From contig MEDY01000240.1 of the NCBI GenBank assembly GCA_001724265.1, positions 51,126-71,125 on the forward strand: 20,000 nt of DNA. Reading direction: 5' to 3'. The position numbers and the translations under genes are program-made. The notes under the pieces are model-generated. The model was not told where the DNA came from, made no database searches, and saw nothing but the letters and a program-made list of their open reading frames with translations. Shown here in pieces: positions 1 to 19,223 of this stretch (its first letter is position 1; the number at the start of each line of letters is the position of its first letter). This DNA is from Rhizaria sp. SCN 62-66. Its lineage: Eukaryota.

Positions 1-1
1 G

Positions 2-3000
2 GGAGAGCGCAGTGACCAGGAGCAGCGCGGCGCGCAATCGGGGCAGCGCCGCGCGGAGCAGGCGGGTGGCCTCTACCTGCAAGGACACCGCGGCCGCACA
101 ACTGACGCCATCAACGCCGGCAGCCTTAGCGTTGTCGCCTACGGCAGCACTCGTGTCGTTGCAGTCGAGAACGTTGTTATTGCAACTGTTGTCTGTTGTT
201 GAGGTGGGGTGATCACGTGACAAGATCGGGGCCGTGAAGACTGTCTGCTTCGGTGCGTACAAGCTTAGGCCAGCGCTGCTACCGCCACTGCCCCAACCAC
301 CACTCGCGTTCACGCTGCGAGAATGTGTGTTTGTGCAGGGCTTGAATGTTGCGTTTAGACTTGAGGCAAAACCTGTCGCGCCAAAAGGTGATGATGCTAC
401 GGCCGTCAAAGCTGTACCCGAACCGGGGTTGCTGCCGTTGCGCAATGATGAAGCCTTCACACTGGCTGCCGTAGCGGCAGTACTCAGAGAGCTTAGCAAG
501 TCGTCAAAACTAGAGTTGCTGGCGTTGGTGCTTTGATTGGGACTGTCTAAAGTCTCTAAGCGGGCGACAACGCCAAAAAGCCCTGCATGTACATCATCAG
601 CAGACTTTTCGCCCAGAGCGTCGACAGGGTTAGTGATGGGATTAAACGAGTCAGTCGCGGAGCTAGAAGCGGGCGATGCTGCTGCTAAAGCTGAAGCCGA
701 TGCGGCCGAGACCAAGGCAGAGTGCGAGCCTGTGACAGCGGCAAAGTGCAGCCAGTTAGTATCATCTCCGAACGCGACCACACTCAACCCGCTCCGGCCA
801 TTGAGGCTGTGGCCACTGCCCGCCGCAGCGCCGCCGGCGAGGCTCACGAAGGAGAACTTGCGGTAGTTGTCGCCGCGCGCGAGCGGCATGCGATGCTGCG
901 GCGGCGGCAGCATGAAGCTATGCGCGGGCCGGCCGGAGCGCAGAAAGGACTCGATCAGCAGCCTGTCGCGCGCGCGGGCCTGTTGCTGCTGTTGCTGCTG
1001 GAGCTGTTGTTGCTGCAGCAAGGCAATAGTCTGGGCTTGCGTTAGAGCTGACGCCGGTAAACGCGGTTGCTGCTGTTGTTGCTGTTGTTGTTGTGGATGC
1101 TGCTGATGTTGTGCCTGGGATTGAACACTGCTTCGCTCGAAAGCACGGGGGCGGGAGCTCGAGCGAAGTGCCATATCGTGCAAGTGCCTCGCGGGCGCCG
1201 GCGTCGGCGCGTACAGACTCGAGACGGCGCCCGTGGCCAGGTCAAACGCGATCAGCGCAAGCCCCGCGGTTTGGGCCACGAGCACCGACGGCCGCTGCGG
1301 GTGCGTCGCCGCGCTAAGAACGCCAAAGCCCGCGGAGGCGAGCGCTGCGGCCGCCGTGGGGGAGAGCAGCGGCGGGGGTGGCAGCTGGCCGGGACCGAAG
1401 CTACTGGCAGACATTGCCGCCGTTGCCGCTGTCGCTGATGTGAAGGCCGATAAAGAAGCGCGAGAGGGGGCTGCGGTGGCGGTGACGGCTAAGTCGGTGA
1501 GCAGGCGACGGCCGCAGAGCCAGGAGCGGCTTGACTTCAAGCTGTCGAGAGCCATGACGGCGGAGACGGCAGCTGCAGAAGCTGCTGCTGGCGCCATGTG
1601 AGCCGTATCATGCGCTGCAGCGGGGGCTAGGTGACTGTGAGAAGCTGTGTTGAGTTTACTGTGATACGAGGCAGGTGGGGGATATACGCACAGTTCCACA
1701 CGACGGGGATCGACATCAGTAGCATCAGCTGAATCATTGCTCTTTGGAGTGAAGCCGTCATTATTCATAGACTTTGATTGAAAGTAAAAGTAGTCGTCAT
1801 CGTCGTCATCATCGTCGTCATCGTCATCTCGCATGTTCTCTTTCTTGCCCCCCGTCGTACCGCAGCCGCCGCCACCACCGCTCTCCAGGTACAACGCGCG
1901 GCCCGCCCGCGCCTCCCGCTCCGCCCACTGCTCCCACGCCACGGCTTCGGCCACAGCGGCCTCCAGCGCCAGCGTCGGCAGGTGCAGCCCGCCGAAGCCG
2001 CCGCCGCCCGCGCCAGAGCCCGCGGCAATGACCGAGAGCCCGAAGGCGCGGAGGTCGAGCACGTCCAGGTGCCCGCTCGCGGTGACCGTGAGCAGCGTGT
2101 GCGAGCTCGACGACAGTAGCGGCGCGACGAGCGGGTGCGACGCCGCGAAACCGGGGCCATGGCTCTAGACAGCATTAGAATGACTGTGCGACAGGCTCGT
2201 GTGCGCTGCGAAGGCTTTGTTGTAGCTCGAACTGAAGATGTCTACCTCGCTACCGCAGTGCATATCATGCCTGCTGCTGGCGCTGGACGGCTCTACATCT
2301 GCGTCTGGGAACACGACCGAGACGATGCGTTTGTCGACGGTGGTCGTGCAGGTGGAGAGCGATGAATGCAGCGATTGCGGGCTCACGCCCCAGACAGACA
2401 TCAGCGACGAGGCCGCCGCGGAGGCGAACGCAGTCGCGGCGGTGCGCGTGCTGGCGCTCGCAGCCGCACTCGCAGAGCTGGTGGCGTTTGAGGTTGAAAC
2501 AGGCGATGACAGACCAGAGTCTCCAGATGCAGTTACGTTTGCAGTCGCTGCGGCTGCTGCGGCGGCAGAGGCAGCCTTCTCCGCCGCGCTTGCAGCCTCT
2601 TTCAGAGCATACTGCGTCCAGCTGTCGACGCTCGGCGCGATACGGTAGTAAATACCGGAGCCAACGCTGGTCACGGAGGACGTAGTGCTTGACCGGAGCA
2701 CATTGTGGCAGCTGGAGGCGACTGCGGTAACGCCGTTAAGCGGCAAGTTAAGCCGCCAACTTGGTGGGGCGGCGGCCGTGAGAGCGTCAGACTGCACCGA
2801 GACGTGGGCGGCGTTATTGTTTGTGCTGAAGTTGCTATCCGCGCTGGCAGTGTGGTGCGTGTGAGTGTGGCTGTTTGTGCGTGTGTTCATGTTGTTGTCT
2901 GAGAATAAACTGTACTCGTCATCGTCGTCATCGTCGTTAATCGCGCTACTGCTGCGGACAAATCCGCCCCGAGCGCCTACACCGCCGGTATAGTTCGTCC

Positions 3001-5806
3001 CCGCAGCAGAATTAGCACGGATGCCGGCGGTGCTGTTCATTGCGCTATTACTGTTGCTGTTGCTGTAGCGCGATGTAAACACCGGACTCGACCGCCCACT
3101 GCTCACACCGGCGGAGTTCGCGCCGCCCCCGCCGCTGTTGTTGTTGTTGTTACCGCCAAGCAGCAGCCTGTGCGCAGTGCTCACAGTCTCCTTGTAGGCG
3201 GGCATGCGCACGTCCCAGACGAGCGTGTGGCCGCCCTCGGTGCCCGCGACGACAACGGCGGGCGCGTGCGGCGTGGCGGCTAGTGCTGTGAAGCGCGTCG
3301 TTGTGTTGTACAGCGAGGACGGCAGCAGCAGCGTCGTGTACGGCCGCAGCGACATTGTTGGCGCCGTCGCCGTCGTCGGCGCCGCGCTGGGAAAGCGCAC
3401 CGTGACGGTGCCGTCTGCGCGATCGCCCACGCTGCCAAATATATCGTCATCATCATCACTATCATTGCTGTCGTCGTCTTTAACATGAACGGAGTTGTTG
3501 CTGTGGGAAGTTGCGAAAGAAGCGTTCTGGACAGTCGCATCAATAACATTTTTGTAGTCGCAGGCCGTGGTATATGCTGACTGTGATGGCGCGAGCAGCT
3601 GGGAGCTTGTGTTCGCAACCGCCTTACCAGTCGCGATATTCAAGCACTGCTGATGGGTACTAGTAACACTGTTCGTGTTTGCAGTGTCAGCGGACGCGTT
3701 ATCGACAATGGACATCAGTGAGTCCCACCGGCTATGCTCACAGTCACCAGTTAGATCAGCGCTACCTCTTAGAGACTCGCTGTGACTGCTGCTTAAAGCA
3801 CAATCGTCAACAGTCGGTGCAAGCACGGCGCCGCGCGAGGCGACGAAGCGCAGCAGCGCGCCAGTTGTCACCACGTCGGCATCGATCGCGGCGACCGCGG
3901 CAACAGGAGACGGTGCAGCGTCAGATGATGCATTTTGCGAAATTTGTTGTGTCGATTCGCGGATTCGCGCCAGAACAACACGTGAGTCGCTCTGGGCACT
4001 GTTTAAACCAGGTGATGTTGTTGTGACTAAACAACGCCTCTTGTTGTGCGAGAACAGTTGGGTATCGTCGTCTTCAATGTTGTCGTCTTCGTGCGCATCG
4101 TGAGCGACGGTGACGGCGGTACTCAGTAGCAACCGCCTCCGTCGCTGCTGGAGCTTCTCTAAACGAAAGCCGTGCCTCTGTCGCTGCAGCTGCCCCACGC
4201 TCAACGCGTAGCTCGACGCCACGTGCGCGCGGCCGCTTGCGACCGCGAAGCCCTGCACGAGCCGTAACGTCTCCCGGCTGCCGGCGCCCACAACGCTCGT
4301 GCGCCCGGCCAACACCGCAGCGCCGGACGCAGCCACAGAGCCCTGACCGCTGTGGTGACCAGGTGTGAGTGTCAGCATAGAGTTAATGTTGGCTATCGGG
4401 TTAGATAGGAATGATATGTCGTAAATATAGGCCGCTTTGGACGAAAACCCGACGACTGCGAGCAAACCGCCTTTGTCTGCTCCAAAGCCACCAGTGCAAG
4501 CACTTAGGTTAGAGCCAAGTGTAGCACTGATATTTTTATCTATGTTTGAGTCAGCTTTACCACTGGTGCCGCTGGTTGTGTTGCTGTAGCGAGGGGACAT
4601 CCCCGTAGCAACAACAGCAGCGGGTGCGGGCAAAAAGCGCATCGCTGTGACTTTGCTGCCAATGCTAAACGCAATCGCCGCAGTCGCGCCTGCGCTGGCA
4701 GCAGTGCCCGCATTTGTGACAGGGCTGGCTGCAGCATTAGTTGCAGCCGGGCCTGAAACCAGCGGCTTCAGCGCCTGGCTCGCCCCGGTCTCAGCACCGA
4801 TCGCACTTGCGCTCGCAGCGCTAATACTGCTGTTGGGATTATGCGACGGGAATACAGCGCTGTTGAGCGTCGCCTCAGCGTGTTCGCTGCCGTCCCAGCC
4901 GTTGTCCTCAACACTGCATTTGCCCTTAGCAGTCGCGTGACGAGTGCGGAAACTTGTACCAAAGCGAATTGAGTGTTCTTTTAATACAGTCTCAATCGCG
5001 CCTGCAGCCAGCTCGCGCAAAGTCACAGAGCTACGCCGTAAACCTGCATTGTTGGCACTGGCTGCACTCCCACTTACACTCGAGACTGAGGTACCTACAT
5101 TGAAGTCAGTCCTGCTCAGACCACGACTGTTATCGTCGCCAATGCAGCCATCCTCCGCGGCGGCGGCGCGGTGCACGGCCGTGGCGAGCGGCGTTGCGGC
5201 GATCGCGAGCCCGGGCGCCGCGTGCGTGTCGGCAAGGAAAAGCAGGTGCCGTACAACGGCGTTCTCGACGGCGGCGGCGACGAGGCGGCCGTCGCGCACG
5301 CCGAACTCGCGCAGTAGCGACACAACGCGGCCGCAATTCAGCGCGGAGAGGTCCAGCTGCGCAAGCACCTCGCTCGGGGGGCAGAACGGGAGCGCGGAGG
5401 CCGCGGGCGCGGAAGCAGCGGCGGTGGCGGAGCTAGAAGAGGAGGGGGGAGAGCAGAGGAGCTCGCGCTGCACCACGAAGTCCATGTGGGTACGCGCGTC
5501 GCCAATAACCAACTTGGATAACGCGTTGGCAACGTGGGTAATGCGCGCGCAAAAGTCTTCGTATGCATTTTCAAATGAATACACCTCGATCAAGCCCGCG
5601 TACGTCGCAGATGCCAGGAGGGAGCCATCCGGCGAGAAATCCAGCGCGATTACGGGGCTTTCATCAGCGCCGGAGAAGCGCGACGCGTTTGACAAGCCAC
5701 GTGGGGTAAAAAACCATGGCATAAGACGGTATTGAGAAGCAGCGTCTACTGCGGAAGGGAGAGGCGGGCCGAATGGGACGGCGGCGTCATGGCCGCAGAT
5801 GTCCAT
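2..5806 (-). CDS. Large WD40/beta-propeller repeat protein with long low-complexity insertions; 3'-partial (runs off the window), at least 1935 codons, one in-frame TAG at 2165-2167
   Basis: The track ORF 2165..5860 stops at TAG, but manual translation of the same frame from 2164 down to 2 (721 codons) finds no stop. WD40-like blades lie on both sides of the TAG: SPVIALDFSPDGSLLASATYAGLIEVYSF (5573-5659), FTALAATPHAPAVVVAGTEGGHTLVWDVR (3206-3292), LLTVTASGHLDVLDLR (2048-2095) and VLSAATHPQRPSVLVAQTAGLALIAFDL (1238-1321). The first in-frame ATG is at 5806; the true 5' end may involve an upstream exon. Confidence 0.75.
980..1110 (-). repeat. CAG/CAA trinucleotide tracts encoding poly-Gln in the WD40 protein
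   Basis: Plus-strand (ctg/ttg)n runs translate on the minus strand as QHQQHPQQQQQQQQQ and QQQQLQQQQQQQ, in the frame downstream of the TAG. Confidence 0.85.
1793..1828 (-). repeat. GAC/GAT tract encoding poly-Asp (12 residues)
   Basis: Plus-strand (gtc/atc)n in the WD40 gene frame, with variation confined to synonymous third positions. This supports coding downstream of the TAG. Confidence 0.8.
2165..2167 (-). other. In-frame TAG inside the WD40 gene (putative recoded or read-through codon)
   Basis: The minus strand reads AAT GCT GTC TAG AGC CAT GGC CCC. The frame is open for 1213 codons before (from ATG 5806) and at least 721 codons after, with no drop to intergenic AT-richness. Confidence 0.7.
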
Positions 5807-5815
5807 CAGGAGCCT

Positions 5816-5951
5816 CTGCGGGGGCAGGGATAAACAGATATAAACATGGGATTTAGACAATATAATTACATACTATAGTATGAAAGTCACAATCCTATTC
5901 AATAAAGTTGGATCATTTCAATAGACGGATCCTGTGATGTACATCACTCAC
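5816..5951 (-). other. Candidate spliceosomal intron at the 5' end of the WD40 gene
   Basis: On the minus strand it starts GTGAGT (5951-5946), has an AT-rich body, and ends in a pyrimidine tract TTTATCCCTGCCCCCGCAG (AG at 5817-5816). Its 136-nt length is similar to the intron in the neighbouring gene. Confidence 0.5.
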
Positions 5952-6128
5952 TGCGATGAGGGTGAACAGAGCGCGAAAGCAAGACTCGCCGCTTGCCAGT
6001 CGCTGGTGGTTGCTGGCAGGGGGGTCTCCCAACGGCTCGATCGGATCGCGAACTTTGTTTTCAAATCTCGTTGCCTTAACATCCGTGTAATTGTCTGCCA
6101 GGCAATTGCTTCGGATTTTTGTGTAAGT
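5952..6128. promoter_or_regulatory. Compact divergent promoter / 5' leader region between the WD40 and C2CD3-like genes
   Basis: Head-to-head genes with ATGs at 5806 (minus) and 6129 (plus). Inferred from position only; no motif identified. Confidence 0.35.
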
Positions 6129-9100
6129 ATGCAAACACAGACATTTTCCCTGCCTCCCGGAGTGCGTGGGGACGTCTTGGGTGAGATCGCCCTGACGATC
6201 GACCGCGTGCAGTGGGCAGTCAAGGGCAGCAGCAAAGTTGGTCTTCCCGCAGGGCCAGTCTTTGTCCGCGCGAAATGGTGGGGTGACGAAGGCGTGAACG
6301 GCGCGTCTATTTTCCTCCCTGCTACATACCCGTTGCGTCCTTCACAACAAGACACTCTCAAAAACACCATTGTGTACGGTGTTCGTGGCGACATCAGTCG
6401 CTACCTTTCTGGTTCGTCCCTCTTCTTTCTCTTGCTTCATGTAATGACAACTTCCACTCTGACAAATGAGCACATATAGTTCACTAAATGTGTTATTTTA
6501 TTCTCACAATGCGTTATACTCTGGCTTGTGTTTATCTTTGTCCGAAACTCTCTCCTCGCAGACATGAAGCTGCTGGTGTGCGACGTCTTCCCCCTCGAAG
6601 CCTCCTTCGACGCCGCGGCCGTGCGCCGCGAGAGCTACAAGAAGGCCTCCCGCATCCTATGGCCGAACCGCCGGCTGCCCGCGACGCCGGCGCCCGCGCC
6701 GCTGGCCGTGGCCGTCGCCGACCTCACCACCTTCGTCGACCTCCTCTCGCAACGCGACAGCAACACAAGCAAGGCCAACGCAGCCAACGCCACTGCTGCT
6801 GCGGATACAGCGCTGCCATCGACGAGCATCTGCATTGACGTGCCGATTGTGCAGGCCACGCGCGTCCTGGGCCAGCTTTCGCTGCACCTGGCATTCACGC
6901 CCTTGTCGGGGCTGCCGCAGTTGCTGGCCCCGGGCCCCGCCGCCGCCGCCAAGGCCGCCGCTGCCGCCGCTGCCGCGAAGGGCCAGGTCAGGGCGGGCGC
7001 TGAGGCCGCGGCCGCGCTGGGGGCGGCGCAGGAGCACCCCTTCGACCAGTTCCCTACTGTAGCTACTGCTGCTGATCCCGCCATCAACACTAACACTTCC
7101 GCTGCGACGGCGGCGGTGGCAAGCGCACCTCGCGAGAGCGCCGCTGGCGGCAACGCTGCTGCTGCGGCTGCTGGTATGTGGCGGCCGCAGTCGCCGACGT
7201 TGCAGTCGCCGTCGCCGCGGGCGCCTCTCAATGGCCAAGGCCTCCACGATGTCTCCACACAGCATCAGCAGCACCAGCAGCAACTGCAGCAGCAGCAGCA
7301 GCAGCAGTATACTGGGAGCAACAACGGCAGCATGACCGAGACGGCGAACCTGCTCTTGACCCCCCGCCCTCTCACCCAAGGCCAGCAGCAGCAACAGCAG
7401 CAGTATGCCCAGCAGCAGCAGCAGTATCAGTCTCAATCTCACTACAGCAGTGACGCGCAGCTGCTGCAGTCCCCCCAGCCCCAGCATCTCTCCTCGCAGC
7501 TCAGCAACAACAACAGCAGCAGCGGCGGCATCAACGTCAACGCAAGCGTGTCTGTGAGCAGCCGCGACCGCGATCATGGCTGCGACCGCGAGCGCGCGTC
7601 GGCTTACGGCGCAAACCTGCCGCAGATGCCCCTCCCTCAGCCCCAAGACCAACAACAGCAGCAGCAACAACAGTAGCAGCACGCAGCGAGCTCTAGCTCT
7701 AGCTCAAGCGCGAGCGCTACCTCTGCCTCAGGTGCCCGCTCTGGCACTGGCTCTGCGCTGGACTCGCTGTTCCCGCCGATGCCGCTGAGCGCAAGCGCGC
7801 ACCCCGACCTGCTCGCCCTGCGGCTGACCGTGGAGCAGGCGTCTCTCTTCGCCGCCGATGCCGCACTCGCCTCGGCAGTCTACACGGGCCGCCTCCCCGC
7901 ACCCGCGCTCGCGCCCCCGCCCCTCGCTGCGCTCTCCGCGGCGGCGTCCGCCGCGCCCGGGTCGATTGGCGCGCGCGCGGCGGCGGCGGCGACGTTCGCG
8001 ACGGGCTACGTCTACGCTACGATCACACCCTGCCCCTCGGCGCTGGCCACCGCCGCCACCACCGCCGCCGCGCGCGCCGCCGCCGACGAGGGCTACAGCA
8101 GCAGCGTTGCGTTTAGCAACGGCGTTTACGCGCCCGCGCCGCCGCTGGCCGCAATCCCGCTCGACTCTGCGCCGTTCGTGACGCCTCTCGTGCCCGCGCG
8201 GCCGCACCCACGCTGGCTCAGCACCAACACAGTTCCGCGCATCTTCTCCGCGCACCTGCCCGCAGCGCTGCGCGGAATGCGGCTCCGCTTCCGCGTGCAC
8301 TGGTGCCCGCCGCACGTCGCGGCGATGCTCCGAGTCAGCGGCTACCTGCCGCCGACCGTGGGCGGCCATAGTACGGACGCGGGAGCCGAGTCGACTGGCT
8401 CTAGCCCCCTCGACGCGCACACCCGCGACGCCACCGCCGTGGCCGTGACCGTGGCCGGGGTCGGCGCCGCGAGCACGACGTGCCACGCCACCGCCGCCGC
8501 CGCGGGTGCAGCGGCCGGCGCCTATTACGGCCCCCACCAGCAGCAGCAGCAGCGCGGGGGGCTGGGGCGCGGCGGATGCCTGCGCCCGGCGGCATGCGGC
8601 TGCGGCCACTGCGGCTGCCCTGTCTGGGCCATCTACCGCCACGGCAGCAACTCTAGCTCTCGCATCTCCGATGCTGACCCCAGTAGTGCGAGCAGCAGCG
8701 CAGCGGTGGGTGCGGCGGGTCCTGTGTCGCGGCTGCAGCGGCTGCTGGACTCGGCCACTGCCCCCGGCTCCGGCTCTGGCTCTGGCTCCAGTTTTGGCTC
8801 TGGCTTGGGAGCGAGCGCTAGCGGCGGCTCGAGCTGGGGCGGCTACAGCATCGTCCGCGCCGACGCCCGCCCCCTCACGACGAGTGCCTCTGGCCCCAGC
8901 CAGCACGGGGGCTCGCTGTTCGCGCACGCCGCCGAGGGACTGGCGACGCAGTTGGCTACCGCGCTGCGCGGAGTCGCCGCCGCGCGCGCCGTACCGCCCC
9001 TGCTCTCCCCGCTGCCGCTGCCCGCTGTCACCACGACGACGACTGGCGGCGCGAGCGGCGGCGATGTGGAGTGCGTGGCCGACACGGACGGTGGCCGCGG

Positions 9101-12100
9101 CGTGCGCGTGTACGCGCGCGTGCTCATCGATGACAACCTCTGCGACCGCGACTACTACATGCGCACCGCGACCGCCGCCGCCAACGCCAGCAGCGGTAGG
9201 AGCAGGGCCGCAATGTGCAAGCGCGATAGTGACGAGGTTGACGTGCTGTGCAGCAAGTGCTGGCAGCAGAGCACGACGCGCCTCCCCACCGCCGCCGACC
9301 TCGCCGGCGTCGTCGGAAACGGCGACTCGACTAGCTTTGAGGTGCTGTGCGCGTACTGCAACGCGGCGTCGGCGAGCTTGCTCCCGCTGCTGCCCGCCGC
9401 AGCTGTGGACGTGCGCGCGCTCAGCGTGACACTGGGCGAGGCCGAGCTCACTCTCGACGCCGCCGCCGTGGCCGGTGTAGCCAGCCTGCAGGAGCGCGTG
9501 CGGCTACACTACCTCACCAAGGAGCACAACAAGAACAGCAGCAGCTATGGCAACGCCATTGATGACGACGGCAAGGACGCTGAGCCCAAGGTCGGGGTCA
9601 GGGTGCTCGCGTCGACCATCCTTACGCTCAAGGAGCCCGTCGCCCCCTGTCCCACTCATAGCGGCAGCGCCCCCCGCTGCCCCGCGCAGCCCGCGCGGCC
9701 CGCGGCGGCGGCTGCGGAGACGACAGGCTCTTTGGCCGTGACGGTTACTCTGGCGCCGCTGGAACACGCGGCCGCGCTGGCGCGGCTCGAGGCGACTGCC
9801 ATCCAGGCTGAGCGCCGTAGTGACGCGGCCGAGGCGGGGGCCGTCGCGCTGCCGGGCGTGTGCGTGCCCATGCGCCTCACCGCCGACGCCGCGCGCATGC
9901 ACCGCGCTGCGCTCAGCGACGCGCTCAATAACAATAACAACAGCAGCCCCAACAGCAATAACAGCGTGAGCATCACTCTCGAGACGCTGCTGAGTAAGGT
10001 GCTGCCGGCGGTGCGCGCGCAGGCCGCCGCCGCCGCCGCCACGGCCGCCGCGGTCGACCATCGCTCTCGCAACCCCCTCAACCCCGCCTCTGCCGCTGCC
10101 TCTGCTTCTGCCGCGACAGCTACAACTGCAGCGGCGGCGACTGGGACGCACGCAGCACCCGCGGCCACGAGTACCCCGCGCGTGCCCGTCGCGGTGCCGG
10201 GCCGCGTGCTGGTCCCGTGGCCCCGACTGACGCTCAGCCTCGCCGACCTGCGGCTGCCGCTGTCCTGGGCCCGGGCGCCCGCACTGGCCGCGCTCGCTCT
10301 GAGCTTCTTCAGCGTCAGCGTCTCGCACCCCGGACTCGCCCCGCCGCGCCAGCCCTGGCTCGTGCCCGCCGGCAGCGTCGGCGCGAGCGCCAGGAATGTC
10401 GGTTGCGCTAGCGGCAGCAGTGACCCCGGTGTCGGTGGGAGCGGCGGCGGGCGCGCGCTGGCGCTGCAGTCAGGCTGGCGGCCGCCCATGGCCACGCACG
10501 CCGTGCGCGGCGACATCGTCGTCGCCGAGTACCCCAGTCAAACCAGCCAAGCCAGTCAAAACATCAACGCCAGCAGCAACGCGGACGACGCGAAGACTGA
10601 CAGCTCTAGTGTTGAAGTCGCCTCTGCGAAAAGCAAGACTGCTGTCGCCGTTGCTGGCGCGACTGCCACCGCGCCAGTGCCCGTACCCGTGCTCTGGGTG
10701 CCTCTGCGCGCGGCCACGCAGCTTACCCCGCTTGCGGCCACTCCCTCCGCTCACGGTCACGGTGAAGAGATTATGGTGACTATGAGCGAGCTGCGGGCCA
10801 CGCTGGCCGCGCTGCGCCGCGCACCACTGCTTCTCACGGTCACCATGTCGGACTCGCCATTCGCGCCCATCTCCACAGCAACCACTGTCGAGGCTGACGG
10901 CGACTGTGCGGACAACGGCGACACCGATGGCGAGAGTGGCGACTGTGAGCATACGACGCGTGACCACTTGCAGCCGCGGCAGCAAGTGACCGTGAGCGCT
11001 CTGGACGGCTCCATCGCGCTCCCACCCGCCCACAGCCGTTCCGGCGCGCACGGCCCCGGCTACGGGCCCGCGCACAGCACCGCCGACGCCGCCGCAGCCG
11101 CGCCCACGGCCACGCCCGCGATCGGCTCGCTGCAGGACCCGTGCCCCGGCGTGCCCGTGGACTTCGACGCTGTCGCTTACCTCGCCGCGCGCCCCGGCAC
11201 GTACACCGGCTCCATGGGGACTTACACCGGCGACGGCGAGGGCGCGGAGGGCTATCAGTACGGCAACGGCGTGCCTGCGCAGTGGGACGCGCGCGGGCGC
11301 CGCGTGCACAACCCCTTCGTGCGGACCACCGCGCCCTTTTCCGCCGCGCCGCTCCGCAAGACCGCGGCCGCGGACAAGCTCGCGCTCCACAACAAGAGCA
11401 ACGCCTCCGCGGGCGTCGGCAACGGGGGCTTTCACGGCAATGGCAACGGCGGGAATAGCAACGCGGGCATCATGTCGGCCGCTGCGGGTCACTCCGCCTC
11501 CGGTGCTAGTTCTAGCTCTAGTTCAAGTGGCGCTTCTGTGAATCCCCCCGGGATGCTGTACGGCCGCCGCACCGGCTACGACGTGGCCCCTGCGCACCTG
11601 GCACGCCTCGCCGACACCGTGCGCGACTGCGCCGTCCGCCGCGGCCACGGCCTCGGCCACGGTGACGGCGACGGCCAAAGCGGGGAGGACGAATGGGCTG
11701 TGGACGCGGCGACCGCGGCCGACACGCTCGACATCCACCACCACGACGGCGACGGGAATGTCGCTAATACTGGCCGTGAGTTCGCAACTGTGGCCGCGCG
11801 CGGCGGACGTCTGCTGAAGAACACTGACTTCGCGACCACTCAGCATGTGTACGACGTCATCACCGGCGCAACCTACGAACGCAAGCTCCGTGGCGAGCAG
11901 CCACTGCGTTCTGTTGGCAGCAGCGGCAGCAACAGTAACGTGACTGCAAGCGGCGTCAAGACGGGCAGCAAGGCCATCGCCGACTGGCTCTGGAAGGAGA
12001 AGGTGTGCGCCAGCGGCGTCTTCACCGTCGCCAACGCTAACGGCAGCGGCAGCGGCAGCGACAACGGCGCCGCGATCACTGCTGCCAGCACTGCTAACAG

Positions 12101-15100
12101 CAGCAGCAGCAACAGCAGCAGCAAGGCCAGCAGCGGCGCCAGCGTGTGCAGCGGGTCCAACACGCGCGAGATCGCTACGTGCGCCGTCTCCGCCAGCGAG
12201 CTCGCGGACGCGCTCGTCGCCTCCGTGGCGATGCGGCTTAACTTGAAGGACCCGCGCCAGCTCGACCGCGAGTACGGCTTGACTTTCATCTCGGACCCCC
12301 GTCGCCAGCAGCGCAGTACAAGCGTCTCCTCGCAGTCCAGCGGCGCGAGCAATAGCGACGGCAACGCCGCGTTTGGCGTGAACGCGCTCAGGCGCCGCGA
12401 GACCGCGATGGCGGTGGCGCTGCTGGCGGCGCCGCCGTCGCCGCTCGACGCCGCCGCGGCGGCCGCGGCGAAGCGCGAGCCTGTGTGCGTGGGCGCGCTC
12501 GCGCGGGCCGGCGTTGTCGACTACACCGTCGCGCCGTGGGCCGCGGCGGGCGCGGGCGGCGAGAGTGAGACGAGCAAGGCTGCGGCGGCCATCAACGCGC
12601 TCCAGCAGCAGCAAGGCGACGACGGAGCCGCTGTGGCGGCCAACGAGGAACGCAAGCCGGGCTGCCCTGTGACGACGCATAAGCCGCTGAGTGAGGCTGC
12701 GCTGGTGCGGCTTGACTTCAAGATCGACCCCTATGTAGCCGACGGTAGCAGCGGCAGCAAGAGCGTTGAGTCGGTGACTGCGGCTGAGGAACATGAGGCG
12801 TGGGAAGCTTACCTGCAATCGCAACAGCCGCCACAGAAGCCGCAGCAGCAGAAGAGTCAGCTCAACAACTCAATGGCTGCTCCTGCTGCCAACGCTGCGA
12901 ACGTTTCCAGTGTTTGCGATGAGAGTGAGCTGAGTGCCTTCATCCTGCCTCACATGCCCGCCTCAAGTGACTGCAATAGCAACAACAACGGCAACCTCAA
13001 CGGCTCTATGTTCGAGCGCGAGTTGAACGAAGTCACCGCTTTAACCCGTGCAGTTCGGAGCCTCATCTCCAACACACAGCAACAGCAGCAGCAGCAGCCG
13101 CAGCCGTCTCAGGGGCAGTTTGCGCCACAACAGCAGCATGCGCCGCGCGAGCGCGAGCAGTCTCTGAACGCGACGGCCGCGGTGGGGCCCGGCGTGCACA
13201 TCACGGTCAATGGCAGCTTCACAAGCGACCACAGCCACCACCACCACCACTACCTCCGCGACCGTGACCGTGACCGCGAGCGTGAGCAGATGTGGCCGAG
13301 CAGCTCCAGCAACGCCGCTGCCGCGCACGGCCAGCCTGCTCCGCCCAGCGCAAGCGCCAACACCGGTGCTGCGAGCTACGGTCTGGCTGGCCCCGCGTCC
13401 CGCCGTCCCCCCACAGCGCCCACAAACGCTGCGTTCCCCGCCGGCCCAGCGGCGGCCGCGCCCTCTGCGAAGCTGTGCGCGACAGCGCTGATCAAGGCCG
13501 CCAACACCAACGCGACGCGCGCACGCGCGCAGAGTCTCGACACGGGCGCGGAGACGGGCTTCGGCGCGCGCCACAGCCTCGGCGCCGGCGTAAGCCTCTC
13601 CGTGTACGAGGACGACGGCGATCGTGGCCCCCGCATGTCGCCGCCGGAGGCCGTGGGCTCGATCATCACGCCGCCGCAGAGCTCCCCGTCCAACTCGCAG
13701 TACAACACCAGCAACAGCAACTTTCTGAGCGGCAGCAGCGGCACCGTCGGCGCCGGTGTAATCTTGATGGCCGCGGGTGCCGCCGCGGGCGCGCACGACG
13801 ACGCGCACAGCGACACCAAGTCATACTTCCGCCCGCCCTCGCCGCTGACGGCGCCGCCGAGCGTGCCGCAGTCGCCCTGCAGCGTCGCCAAGACCGTCGC
13901 TGGCACAGATGCCGTCTCAGTCGTCGCCAGCAGCGTCGCAGGCGGCTGGGCGGCGCAATCCGCGCTGCCGCTGCCGCTGCCGCTGGCGCAGCCGGCGCTT
14001 ACGCCGGGCGCGGGTGCGGGTGCGCCGCCGCACGTGCCGCTGCCGCTGCCGCCGACCGCGAGCAGCAGCAGCAACGCAACGGTCACTGACGCGGCCCCTG
14101 TGCCTGCTGATGCAACCAGCAGCCCCATCGGTCCTGATACTTCTGAGTCTGCCGTCGCTCCTGCTGCTGCCACTGCCGGCACGCCCACTCCCGTGGGCTT
14201 TGTGTGCGGGCGCGCCGGCAGCAGCATCGTGCCCGGCGGCGTCGGCTCCATCGGCTCCATCCCGCGGCCCCCCAGCGCGAACCCGCTGGCGCAAGCGCAC
14301 AGTGTCGATGGCAGTGCGAATGCCTTGGTGCTGAACCCGGTTGCCGCAGTAGCCGGCAGTCCTGCGCCTGTCGCTGGCGGCGCCAGCACCGCGTTCACCG
14401 GCGGCGTCGGCTTTACGGTGATCGGCGGCTCGTCGCTGTGGAAGCGGCCTGCGAGCCTCATGAGCCGCGTCGCTTCGCAAACGCCAACGATGGCCGACGG
14501 TGCCGACAATAATCGCAATATTGGCGACGCAGTCTCCCCAGTCCCGACTGCAGTGCCTGTCGCGGGTGTCGTGCCCACAACGACTGCAACTGCAACTATG
14601 GCCGACGCTGCTGGTGCGAACGATTCTGCTTCTGGTGTTCAGTTGCAAGAGCATATGCTTCATGCCGCGCAACCGACAGTGTCGCAGCCCACCGCCGTCG
14701 GTGCCGCCAGCCTTCCGATGCCTCTGCCGCCAACGCCTCTGTCGTCGTCCTCCTCCTCATCCTCGCCCACCGACGCTGCCCAGTCCGACGCCGCCCGGTC
14801 CGCCGCCGCCGCGACTGTTGCCACGGCGGCCGCGTCCCCCACGCTGCCCAGCGGCAGCGACGACGCGGCCTCGCCGCAGCTGCGCGCGCACCCGCACGCG
14901 CATTCGCAGCAGCAGCAGCAGCAGCAGCAGCAGCCGTCGTCGTCGTATGTGCCCGGCACGGTCTCGAGCCCAGTCGCGGCCAGCGCGGGCGCCAGTGTCT
15001 TCGGCCTTGGCAGCGGCGGCGTCGACAGCGTACCCGGGTCCCCCGCCGCCGCGGCCGTGCCTATCTCGGTGCCGCCGCTGCCGCTGACGAGGCTCGTCGG

Positions 15101-16838
15101 CGCCGCAGGCGGCTATGCCGCGTACTCTGGCGGGCTCAGCGCCGCGGGCGGGGCTCAGCAGGCCGCCACCGCCCACCCCAGTCACGCCCACAACCACGCG
15201 CAGGCGCAGGCGCAGGCGCAGGGGCAGGCGCTGGGACAGGGGCTCGGTCACCCGGGCCAGAGCCAGACCGAGAGGCACGTCGCCACAAGCGCGAGCGCCG
15301 CCACAAGCAGCAGTCTTGCGGCAAGCGTGAGCAGCGGTGCAGTGCCGGCTGCTGGCGTGGATGCGGCGACGACCGCTCCGAATGGTAACGGCGCTCAAGA
15401 CGCCCCCCTTGGTGCTGCGGCAACGGTCAACGACGAGGATGCGTTTTACAACGCGGGAGAAGAGACCTTCCGCCGCCTCTACAGCTCGCTCGGCCCCGAG
15501 ACCGACATCAACGCGGACGCTGACGGCGACAAGGTTGGCAACGGTGCCGCTCTTAGCCCGTCTGCCGGCGCAGACCGCGACTTCGACCCGCTGGAGGACA
15601 TCGCGGCCGTGCTGGCCCGCGTCCGCGCGCGCAGTGTGGCCGCCACGCACGCCGCTGCCGTGTCCGCTGTCGCGCTGACCGACGGCGACCCCGCGGACCC
15701 CGCGCTGGCCGCGCTGCCCTCGCCGGTCATGCGCAGCAGCAGCGGCAGCAGCGGCGACGCTAGCGGCCGCGGCTACGGGCGCAGCTACGGTCACGGTGGC
15801 AGTCACGGTGTTGGTCAGAGTAGTGCTGTTGCGGCTGTTGCTAAGATCAGTCGGATGGTCAGTTCAATTAGCCCTGCAGACAACGGTCACGGCTACAACA
15901 TGGGCTACGACAGTGGTCGCAGTAGTGGCAGCAGCGGCTTCAGTAACGGCAGTCAGAACAACGACTTCGCTCCGCACAGTAGCAGCAAGTTTTTCAAGAA
16001 TTTAAGCACTTCATCTGACAACAAGTCTAAGGGGCGCGTGCCGAACCCTTATCTTGCTGATTATCACCAGAGCCCGCGCTCGTTTGCCTCCGCCTCTGCT
16101 GCCGCGCTGAGCAACAGCATCGGTCACAACGGCAGCAGCTCTAAGAACGGCTCCAGTGTGTTCGATAGTCGCCTCAGTGGCGCCAACAAGCACCAGTCGC
16201 ATTTTAATCCCCACGCTAGTAAGTACGGTGACCACGATGAGAACGCGTCACCTCGCTCGTACGGCCACAATAACAACAACTACGGCAGCCACGCGAGCGC
16301 CATTGTTGACTCTGCTCGCGGCAACGGCAACGGAATCGAGGCTAACTACGACGATGACGACGCGACGAGCGATGTGCTGGCCAACTGGCGTGCCAAGAAC
16401 GCCGCCACCACGCGCGCCGCTGCCGCTGCCGCTGTTGCTGCTGGTAATGGCAACGACGGCGAGCCAGTGAGCGTGACGCGCATTCTGGCCGCGGCCGACG
16501 CTGGTCTGGGCGTGTCTTCCCCCTCAAACCTTAGCTCGCAATCCAGCGACGGCGGCCGCCGGTACAACCACGTCGGGAGCCCAGGGCCGCTCAGCGGGCG
16601 CAGCAGCGGCAGCAGTGACGGGCTGGGCGGCGGGTTGGGCGTCAGCCCCCGCAGCGGCAGCAGCGACAGCGGCGTTGTCTGCGCCGCGGACCCGCTGAGT
16701 GACCGTGAGCACTACTACGGCGGATTCGGCCGTGACCGTGACCGTGGGCATGCGCGGTACGACAATCAGGAGCAAGTGGAGCTGCTGTCGCCTCGCAGCG
16801 GGGTCATCTCGCCGCTGAGCGGCGTTATGGACTTCTAA
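6129..16838 (+). CDS. C2CD3: C2CD3-like centriolar/ciliary C2-domain protein; join(6129..6411,6562..16838), about 3519 aa, one exonic in-frame TAG at 7674-7676 (ends at TGA 16850 if TAA is also sense)
   Basis: The spliced N-terminus SLPPGVRGDVLGEIALTIDRVQW..VFVRAKWWGD..NTIVYGVRGDISRYLSDMKLLVCDV..RVLGQLSLHLAFTPL matches the N-terminal C2 domain of C2CD3 as I recall it (LPP.V.G, V.VRVRWWGE, YLTDM..LVLEV, LGELQVSLALEPL). Track ORFs 5934, 6528 and 7779 share one frame; 6528 and 7779 are separated only by one TAG plus 34 sense codons. Later beta-strand islands (LALRLTVEQASL, TLGEAELTL, GSLAVTVTL) suggest further C2 domains. Confidence 0.8.
6412..6561 (+). other. Phase-1 GT-AG spliceosomal intron, 150 nt
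   Basis: G|GTTCGT...CTCTCTCCTCGCAG|AC. About 39% GC (59/150 by hand count) against GC-rich exons. Splicing restores the motif RYLSDMKLLV. Confidence 0.85.
7260..7679 (+). repeat. Several CAG/CAA poly-Gln tracts; the last contains a TAG
   Basis: QHQQHQQQLQQQQQQQ (from about 7260), QQQQQQQYAQQQQQ (from about 7383), and CAA CAA CAG CAG CAG CAA CAA CAG TAG CAG (7650-7679). Confidence 0.85.
7674..7676 (+). other. In-frame TAG within a poly-Gln run of the C2CD3-like gene (putative UAG=Gln)
   Basis: Eight Gln codons precede it and one follows; the frame then stays open to 16836. Confidence 0.75.
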
Positions 16839-17024: not shown

Positions 17025-17404
17025 TCAGAGCCCTTCAATCTTCGCAAGGAAATCGGCAAGGTCGTCCCCGTCGCCACTGCCAGTCCCGGCAGCCGTCTTG
17101 GGCTTCGGTGCCGACGTCATCGCAGCCGCCTGCGCCGCCCTCGCGCGCGCCACTGCCAATTCGCCAGTCGCAGTCGGCGCGCTTGCGCCCGCGCCCGCGC
17201 CCGCGGCGGCGGCGGCCTGGGGGCGCTTGGCCGCCAGAGACACCGCCGCGGGCACGAGCGCCGCGATGGCCTTGCTAACCGTCGGAACGGTCGGCGCTGC
17301 GGGGGCGGGCTTGGGGGCCGGCCCCGCGACATCCGCCTCAGTCGAAGGAGCAGTCGCGGTCGCGGCAGCATCAGTAGTCGCAGCAGCGCCAGGCGTGCTA
17401 ACGT

Positions 17405-17435
<31 letters not shown>

Positions 17436-19223
17436 CTTGTTCTTGTTGGCGTAGGGGTTCACCATGATGTGCCCCGCGCCCGCGCCGCCCGAGCCCGCGC
17501 CGCCGCGGCTGCGCTCGGCGGGGCCCAAGTACGCCAACAACGGGTCAACGGTCTCGGCCGCACCGGTGCCGGCGACAGCGCGCGCCCGGTGCCGGCGCTG
17601 CCGCGCGCTCGTCTCGTCGTCGTCGTCCGCGGGGGCGCTGGCGTTACTGTTGCTGTTGTTGCGTTGGGCGGCTTTGTTGGCCTTCCACTGCGCGCGCGCC
17701 TGTGCCGAGAGCGCGAGGGCGGCCTCGACGCCGGCGGACGCGGAGACGGGACCACCAACGATAGGGCCGCCGACAACGGGGCCGCCAACAACAGGGCCGC
17801 CAACAACGGGGCCGCCCACTACAGGGCCGCCGACGACGGGGCCAGAGACGGGGCCGCCGACGACAGGGGCGAGAGTCTTAGCGTGAGTGACGCCGTCGTA
17901 ATGACCGCTGCCATCATCGTCGTCGTCGCTGTCGTAGTTCGACACAATCGCCGCCCCAACACTCGCGCTCGCCGTGGCGCTCGGCTGAGTCGCCGCAGCT
18001 GCAGCGGTAACGGCAGAAGTGGTCGGGGGCAACTCAGGCCCGGCGACAGCACTCGCGCTCACAACACTCTGCGGTCGCGATTGTGACTGCTGGGCTTGCA
18101 GGTGGGCCCTCAGCACGGCCGGCGGGGGCGGCGGCGGCGGCGGACCTTGCCTCGGGCCATGAGGCTGCGGCTGGGCCTGCAACCGAGTCTGAGCCTGTGG
18201 CTGAGGCTGTGCGTTAGGAAACTGATTGTGCGCGCCGCGTCCCCTATGGTCCGCACCTCCGTACGCGCCCCCACGTGCTCCCCCATGTGTTACCCCATGC
18301 GTACCGGCCCCCGCACTGGCGATGGCTGCGGCGGCGTTCTGCCTGCGCTGCTCCGCGAGTGCCAGCGCCGCGCGAGCCGCCGCCGCGTCGTTGGCGGCAC
18401 GCGCGGCGGCCACGCAGTCCTCTGGCCGCAGCCAAGGCGGGAGCGGCACATTGCGCCACGGCGGCAGCGCCAGCAGCGGCCGCGCGTCCGCCGCGAGAAG
18501 CGAGTCGTCCTCGGCGCGAGTCCAGATGTTGTGGCAGCCGGCGCGGGCGGCGGCGGCGCGCGCGGCGGCGGCGTCGGCGGCGGCCGCAGCGGCCTCGGCC
18601 TCGGCGTCGGCCTTGGCCTTGGCGGCGGCGGCCGCGGCCGCTGCGGCGGCACCGCGCTTGGATGTCGCGCTCTCGGCGTCCGAGTCGTCAGAGGAGAACA
18701 AATCGGAGTAGTCCCCGTCGTCTTCTTCGTCGTCATCGTCGTCCTCGTCCTCGTCCTCGTCGTCGTCGTCGCCGTACTCGGTGGTGCGACCCTTGCCCCT
18801 GCGAGCCGTTGGCTGGCCGGAGCGCAGCTGCGCCAGCCGCCGCCGCTTCGCGCGCTGCTCCTCCGTCAGCACCGAGTCGCTGTCGTCGCCGTCGTCGTCG
18901 TCATCGCCGTCGCCCGTCGCACCGGGGCCCTTGCGGGCGCCCGCGGGGCCCGTGGCGGCGGCGGTAGCGGCGTCGCGCTCAACGGCCGCCTTGCGCAGCG
19001 TCGTCAGCTTCTTCATCTTCAGCGCGGCCACGGCGTCGTCCTTGTTGTGCACGAGCGCCACGCGCACCTTATCCATCTCGGCGTCAATGTCAGACACGGT
19101 CTTTGCGCTCCACTTGGCCGACTGCTGTTCCTGGCGCTCTTGGCGGCGCTTCTTCGCCTCGCGCTGGCTCGCCGCGCGACGGGCTTTAAGCGCGGGGTTG
19201 ATTTCGCGCTTATTTGATAGCAT
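17025..19223 (-). CDS. WBP11: WW domain-binding protein 11 (NpwBP/SIPP1)-like pre-mRNA splicing factor, 732 aa, intronless, ends in TGA
   Basis: The N-terminus INPALKARRAASQREAKKRRQER..KTVSDIDAEMDKV..KMKKL resembles the Wbp11 domain (recalled as MNP.D..RK..RKRELKKNK..R). It has acidic tracts and polyproline (QGPPPPPPPP). The C-terminal DDLADFLAKIEGL resembles the recalled WBP11 end DD.YE.FMKEMEGLL. ATG at 19223 with AT-rich flanks. Confidence 0.8.
17745..17870 (-). repeat. 15-bp coding minisatellite encoding (GGPVV) about 8 times
   Basis: The translation is PVVGGPVSGPVVGGPVVGGPVVGGPVVGGPVVGGPIVGGPV; units differ mostly at third codon positions. Confidence 0.9.

Follow-up and report, generated by a model that had tools for sequence, protein, structure and literature searches.

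UAG as a probable glutamate codon, with UAA and UGA as stops, in a protist of possible rhizarian affinity

To our knowledge, UAA and UAG nearly always change meaning jointly. The described codes in which UAG alone has acquired sense assign it to Leu (the rhizarian exLh and some ciliates), to Gln (Iotanema spirale and some ciliates) or to Ser (Scotinosphaera); Glu, which is the probable assignment in the protist considered here, is not listed for such codes in the available portions of the two sources (PMC5304391, PMC11687900). UAG = Glu has been reported in company with UAA = Lys (PMC10553269) or with UAA = Glu (in peritrichs and in Blastocrithidia; PMC12153298). A search of the literature on code variants (its range mostly outside subscription papers) yielded neither a code in which UAG = Glu while UAA and UGA remain stops nor any account of this organism.

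The protist resembles I. spirale, exLh and the phyllopharyngean ciliates in that UAG is sense and UAA and UGA are stops (PMC5304391, PMC11687900), and it may, like exLh, be rhizarian. In contrast to the phyllopharyngean ciliates, 78-91% of whose genes use UAG (PMC11687900), it uses the codon at a frequency of ~0.1 per 1000 codons. Oligohymenophorea sp. PL0344 reads UAG as Glu by means of CUA tRNAs that are nearest to tRNA-Glu, as is the CUA tRNA of this protist; however, PL0344 has 10 such genes and UAA = Lys as well, whereas here a single CUA gene was found and TAA ends genes (PMC10553269). Blastocrithidia spp. (UAR = Glu, UGA = Trp) likewise combine a Glu-derived CUA tRNA with avoidance of reassigned codons in some genes, but have reassigned three stops in an AT-shifted genome, whereas the coding DNA of this protist is GC-rich and exonic TAA and TGA were not seen in it (PMC12153298). 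A class-I release factor whose internal stop must be read through, as must that of the eRF1 described below, is known from Mimivirus and Megavirus; that case is viral, involves frameshifting as well as readthrough and plays out in a host with the standard code, whereas here the eRF1 is cellular and TAG is sense elsewhere (PMC3521657).

As judged from sequence, the nuclear code of this organism is probably one in which UAG specifies Glu and UAA and UGA are stops. The window (the whole stretch of DNA analysed, 20,000 nucleotides) contains the following features.

1..5806, minus strand: divergent neighbour gene, a reading frame that leaves the window, with the window's second internal in-frame TAG at 2167-2165
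6129..6411, plus strand: exon 1 of a C2CD3-like gene, starting at ATG 6129, with an N-terminal C2 domain (Pfam PF25339 C2_C2CD3_N, E 6.4e-13, 49.2 bits)
6412..6561, plus strand: predicted GT..AG intron, 150 nt, 39% GC, removal of which restores the frame
6562..16838, plus strand: exon 2 of the C2CD3-like gene, a frame that is open but for one internal TAG and is closed by TAA at 16836-16838
7650..7682, plus strand: run of eight Gln codons, in-frame TAG at 7674-7676, then CAG CAC (read from the sequence; the same in X1 and X2 contigs)
17025..19223, minus strand: WBP11-like gene (PF09429, E 1.9e-5) ending in TGA

Read directly, bases 7650-7682 are two CAA, three CAG, two CAA, CAG, TAG, CAG and CAC, which is exactly the string given in the initial annotation. 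The frame does run on past the TAG into a long ORF, as had been noted: 398 open codons precede it (6480-7676) and 3053 follow (7677-16838) before the TAA, the 3019 residues noted earlier presumably being reckoned from a start further along. When the bases downstream of the TAG are shuffled 100 times, the longest open frame does not exceed 538 codons. The spliced C2CD3-like gene specifies 3519 residues, with TAG as codon 466; its exon 2 (codon counts CAG 129, CAA 29, GAG 72, GAA 11, TAG 1) has no Pfam match at E 0.01. As boundaries of an intron that would remove the TAG, 12 in-phase GT..AG pairs nearby were considered and rejected; they enclose DNA of 58-67% GC, as against 39% in the gene's predicted intron. 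The neighbour gene on the minus strand is without a Pfam match. The two long genes begin head to head, with ~320 bases between them (5807-6128). The WBP11-like gene ends in TGA, which implies that TGA is still a stop.

The T at 7674 is real. Four of the ten sequencing runs recorded as containing this stretch were compared with it base by base (X1, X2, X4 and the RNA run X5). Contigs of X1 (a possible source) and of X2 (another study) cover 7316-8400 with no differing letters; an X4 contig includes 7674 but stops at 7677. (Contigs lose rare variants, so that the position could be heterozygous.) The second TAG, at 2167-2165, is crossed by X1 and X4 contigs, again with no differing letters. Among the X5 pieces listed, none lies over either TAG of the window, and the comparison showed no RNA splice joint at the predicted intron.

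Counts made in a sample of the genome support TAG as a sense codon generally, with UAA and UGA still serving as stops. The assembly (34.9 Mb, eukaryotic) was sampled for ~0.95-0.96 Mb of its own genome, and internal stops were counted in coding frames that a dicodon model scored best of the six. Strict limits give 13 internal in-frame TAG and no TAA or TGA; relaxed limits, covering ~190,000 coding codons, give 20 TAG, a single TGA (intronic) and no TAA, and the frequency of TAG in the sampled coding DNA is the ~0.1 per 1000 codons cited above. Clear gene ends (that is, strong coding sequence followed by non-coding DNA) comprise 14 TAA and 12 TGA; were TAG to make up 16-33% of stops, its absence from these 26 ends would have a probability of 0.011 to 0.00003. 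TAG is the first stop encountered in seven cases, with coding DNA behind five of them, and the remaining two run on in frame when inspected. At the base 3' of TAG no preference is evident (C 10, G 9, A 6, T 4; n = 29), and programmed readthrough is not suggested.

Conserved coding exons with in-frame TAG belong to eRF1, five kinases, a UBE2J1-like E2, two UCH proteins, SUV3 and an ASCC3/Brr2-like helicase. Many further TAGs within domain matches are intron acceptors and were set aside. Nine of 142 kinase matches hold a lone TAG, which is exonic in five and an intron acceptor in four (the tally leaves out one lone-TAA match and one of four mixed-stop matches). No exonic TAG was found in the kinesin (54) and DEAD (43) matches, each set having one lone TAG that is intronic; dynein AAA_6 gave 18 matches, and in 10 stretches of dynein heavy chain genes no exon contains TAG, all aligned TAGs lying at intron edges; SNF2 (21) and ABC (19) matches add no exonic TAG, and two new TAG matches of PF07714 are both intron acceptors. 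Two loci, a helicase that is presumably Prp5-like by its motifs (L164) and a kinase locus (L033), contain two in-frame TAGs each, a clustering above the overall rate.

A single-copy gene for a tRNA with a CUA anticodon is located at G000:C84:76008-76080, in a contig stretch that also has a GC-rich frame, presumably formin-like by its motifs. (The pattern search gave 42 matches, of which six were examined in full and one is a tRNA with this anticodon.) In the acceptor stem, discriminator and T-stem, it has 21/25 bases in common with tRNA-Glu(CUC) and 19/25 with tRNA-Glu(UUC), as compared with 15/25 for Asp and 7/25 and 8/25 for two tRNA-Gln. Aligned with 13 tRNAs, it scores best with tRNA-Glu(CUC), at 68; 47 of its 73 bases are identical to that tRNA, below the 69-93% identity to tRNA-Glu of the PL0344 CUA tRNAs (PMC10553269). 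Its A36 counts against Glu, since in E. coli C36 contributes strongly to Glu identity (PMC9976931). All five copies of tRNA-Gln(CUG) and all eight of tRNA-Glu(CUC) are identical to the query, so that no second suppressor is to be found among those copies; neither pattern nor DNA searches produced a Gln-derived CUA tRNA (a CUA tRNA that is highly divergent, or interrupted by a lengthy intron, could escape them). The absence of a recognisable UUA tRNA among 41 pattern matches, two examined in full and the others by eye, is a soft one. An Rfam tRNA search in which 63 of 506 candidates were scored does not list the CUA tRNA, and folding z-scores are weak for all three tRNAs tested, controls among them. 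A UUA-anticodon tRNA occurs at L287:11904-11977; this eRF1 locus from the metagenome belongs to an unrelated organism.

The search for eRF1 returned three matches: a single eRF1 gene, and two fragments of what, on reading of the sequence, is a pelota-like gene. The eRF1 gene (L079, G000:C63) has four exons, 441 codons, a GC3 of 0.90 and an internal TAG at codon 111, which aligns to human E107. The TAG is also present in a second assembly (locus L211), where 1626/1626 bases are identical; a metagenome scan of 80 loci yielded one identical eRF1 copy and no close relative. The corresponding column of 116 homologues is E 107, D 8, V 1 and Q 0. The V is that of the nearest relative, P0004 (85% identity), and implies that the column is relaxed in this lineage. 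The protein carries the changes T32S, G57S and T58K, all at positions nearly invariant among the 116 homologues (T32 is T in 110/110 of those aligned there), and is unchanged at NIKS, E55, L69, S70 and YxCxxxF. T32 bonds the G of UAG; the same position is changed in I. spirale, as T32G, whereas L69, retained here, is altered in exLh (available portion of PMC5304391). The eRF1 of P0004 has T58K in common with that of this protist and retains T32 and G57, and its sequence may represent an earlier stage of code change. The codon that follows the TAG is the sole AAA among the 32 Lys codons of the gene.

On the reading of UAG as Glu, GluRS would charge the CUA tRNA, and eRF1 with T32S, G57S and T58K would recognise UAG poorly. 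At 7674, a CAG-to-TAG transition would have placed Glu in a weakly constrained poly-Gln linker as a tolerated Gln-to-Glu change, and the ribosome would pass codon 466 to complete the full 3519-residue protein. Sites at which Gln might be expected are accounted for in the same way, as tolerated Gln-to-Glu changes. In contrast, UAG = Gln needs separate explanations for the Glu-derived body of the tRNA and for two homologue columns that lack Gln.

The alternative that survives best, though it is unlikely, is that decoding of UAG is ambiguous: the single Glu-bodied CUA tRNA would contend with residual termination by eRF1, or would be charged in part with Gln. In its favour, only one CUA tRNA gene was found, the codon is rare and missing from the dynein exons cited above, the homologue columns are divided between E/D and Q, and the TAG of eRF1 stands in a gene of high GC3 in both assemblies, where it could restrain the release factor by negative feedback, in the manner of the readthrough-gated release factors described for giant viruses (PMC3521657, available portion). 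Against this stand the 26 clear gene ends without TAG, the lack of a readthrough-type bias in the following base and the V of P0004 at the eRF1 site; moreover, Blastocrithidia also has reassigned codons that are rare in highly expressed genes (PMC12153298, as far as its available text goes). The feedback idea can also be joined to the reading of UAG as Glu, in a composite that is possible but doubtful: a probable rhizarian in which UAG alone means Glu, by way of one tRNA gene, and residual termination at UAG would regulate eRF1, strong termination at codon 111 lowering eRF1 output. (At the background rate, a gene as long as this would contain one TAG with a probability of roughly 1 in 20, so that feedback can be put forward as a possibility only.) Bacterial RF2 autoregulates. 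If true, the composite would give cellular eukaryotes a counterpart to RF2 and to the autoregulated release factors of giant viruses, and would be an ambiguous intermediate occurring in nature.

Less likely still is the meaning proposed in the initial annotation, which took the TAG to be read as Gln, with CAG to TAG as a synonymous change; I. spirale has such a code. That TAG is an amino acid codon is borne out by the contigs of the second study and by the counts in the sampled genome; that the Gln run shows a Gln meaning is not. Other TAGs stand within a run of Ser codons (L303) and within Asp/Glu runs (L299, L308, L164), which argues that a run tells which codon mutated and not what TAG means; a stop codon in a homopolymer run is a mark of its mutational source. 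Poly-Gln tracts elsewhere in the genome do contain in-frame TAG (L169, L033 twice, L328), a point on which the Gln meaning depended, and L003 is a further Gln-run site. Surveyed more widely, (CAR)4-TAG-CAR-CA has 180 matches in the genome, but of 12 sampled only one is in the Gln frame, with one undecided. Of 12 acidic-context TAG matches, only two are in a coding frame, which counts against Glu, as does the finding of no genomic match to GARGARTAGGARGAR, for which about one or fewer would be expected by our estimate. With the flagged site left out, flanks are Gln-rich at 5/27 TAG sites and acidic at 2/27, a preference for Gln worth 0.6-6.3 bits under the different assumptions made; scoring the residue context of 23 sites does not separate the candidate residues.

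Homologue columns divide three to two. Besides eRF1, those favouring E or D are UBE2J1 (D 74, H 16, S 12, E 7 and Q 0 in 120 homologues, three of which do not cover the position) and SUV3 (D in human, N in a second orthologue). Those favouring Gln are a kinase, L014 (Q 6 and E 1 in the 17 homologues of at least 50% identity; Q 26 and E 19 in all 150), and the ubiquitin domain of L313, where 4/4 paralogous copies have CAG (the Pfam scores there are E 96.2 and Q 96.3). Two further kinases point weakly to Glu (L044, E 22 and Q 5 in 132 homologues; L037, E 16 and Q 7 in 150). No invariant Gln column with TAG was found among the sites compared, and PDB alignments at the TAG column are uninformative (L014 A/Y, L158 K/M/C, L297 C). 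Pfam hardly separates E, K and Q: bits summed over six TAG sites are E 723.1, K 721.6, Q 721.3, S 718.3, Y 713.6, L 710.9 and W 709.5, E being above Q by only 1.8. (The UCH site L297, whose surroundings match the domain poorly, was for that reason kept out of this sum; its inclusion gives E 791.7, K 791.2, Q 790.0, S 788.1, Y 783.4, L 781.6 and W 778.3.) The flanking context and the two columns, L014 and L313, keep Gln in contention, as does its being the most frequent target of UAG reassignment (PMC11687900, available portion). What makes it less likely than Glu is that no CUA tRNA was found other than the one with a tRNA-Glu body and that Q is absent at the TAG columns of 116 eRF1 and 117 covered UBE2J1 homologues.

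Any other residue (Lys, Leu, Ser, Tyr, Trp or pyrrolysine) is very improbable. Lys is only 1.5 bits under Glu in the six-site Pfam sum, but the CUA tRNA scores 41 and 38 with two tRNA-Lys, against its 68 with tRNA-Glu. Leu, for which a rhizarian precedent is described in the available part of PMC5304391, lies with Tyr and Trp 9.5-13.6 bits under Glu. ARAGORN labels the CUA tRNA 'Pyl'; the label depends on the anticodon alone, and the body matches tRNA-Glu. Least credible of all is the standard code, with the TAG as a nonsense allele, a sequencing error (the initial annotation had allowed for a private allele or a base-call error) or part of a small intron: the listed X5 pieces do not span it and many TAGs elsewhere proved to be intron acceptors, but a second study has the identical base, the internal stops counted in exons are all TAG, a CUA tRNA gene exists, and termination at codon 111 would truncate the sole eRF1 gene found.

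A GC-rich genome with rare UAG, one suppressor tRNA and an altered eRF1 would make the codon-capture and ambiguous-intermediate models testable in a living lineage. Annotation with the standard code would leave some of this protist's genes truncated.

The host lineage may be Rhizaria, as suggested by eIF4A-III, whose best named matches are Plasmodiophora, Amorphochlora, Paulinella, Gymnochlora and Bigelowiella; in a one-gene tree it forms a long branch and its placement is not resolved. A relative, P0246, has an eIF4A-III of 89% identity. Apart from one run without a label, those in which the stretch occurs are described as bioreactor, wastewater, activated sludge and microbial fuel cell. A divergent 18S rRNA gene of ~4.4 kb (L210:1500-5945, G000:C706) has several long insertions, which look like group I introns, one perhaps with an open frame.

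A ubiquitin insertion is known from Rhizaria at the place where three divergent ubiquitins of this genome (L311, L317 and L318) have an extra Ser ahead of MQIF; no head-to-tail polyubiquitin junction was seen in these three, two of which stop at contig ends. The ubiquitin domain of L313 (L313:2-1297, G000:C681), with TAG where host ubiquitins have CAG, is fused to a Peptidase_S74 chaperone domain in a frame of 47% GC, possibly of viral or mobile origin. Three low-GC stretches on separate contigs (L304, L305 and L306) hold similar degenerate frames with many stops and are probably a repeat or a decayed mobile element.
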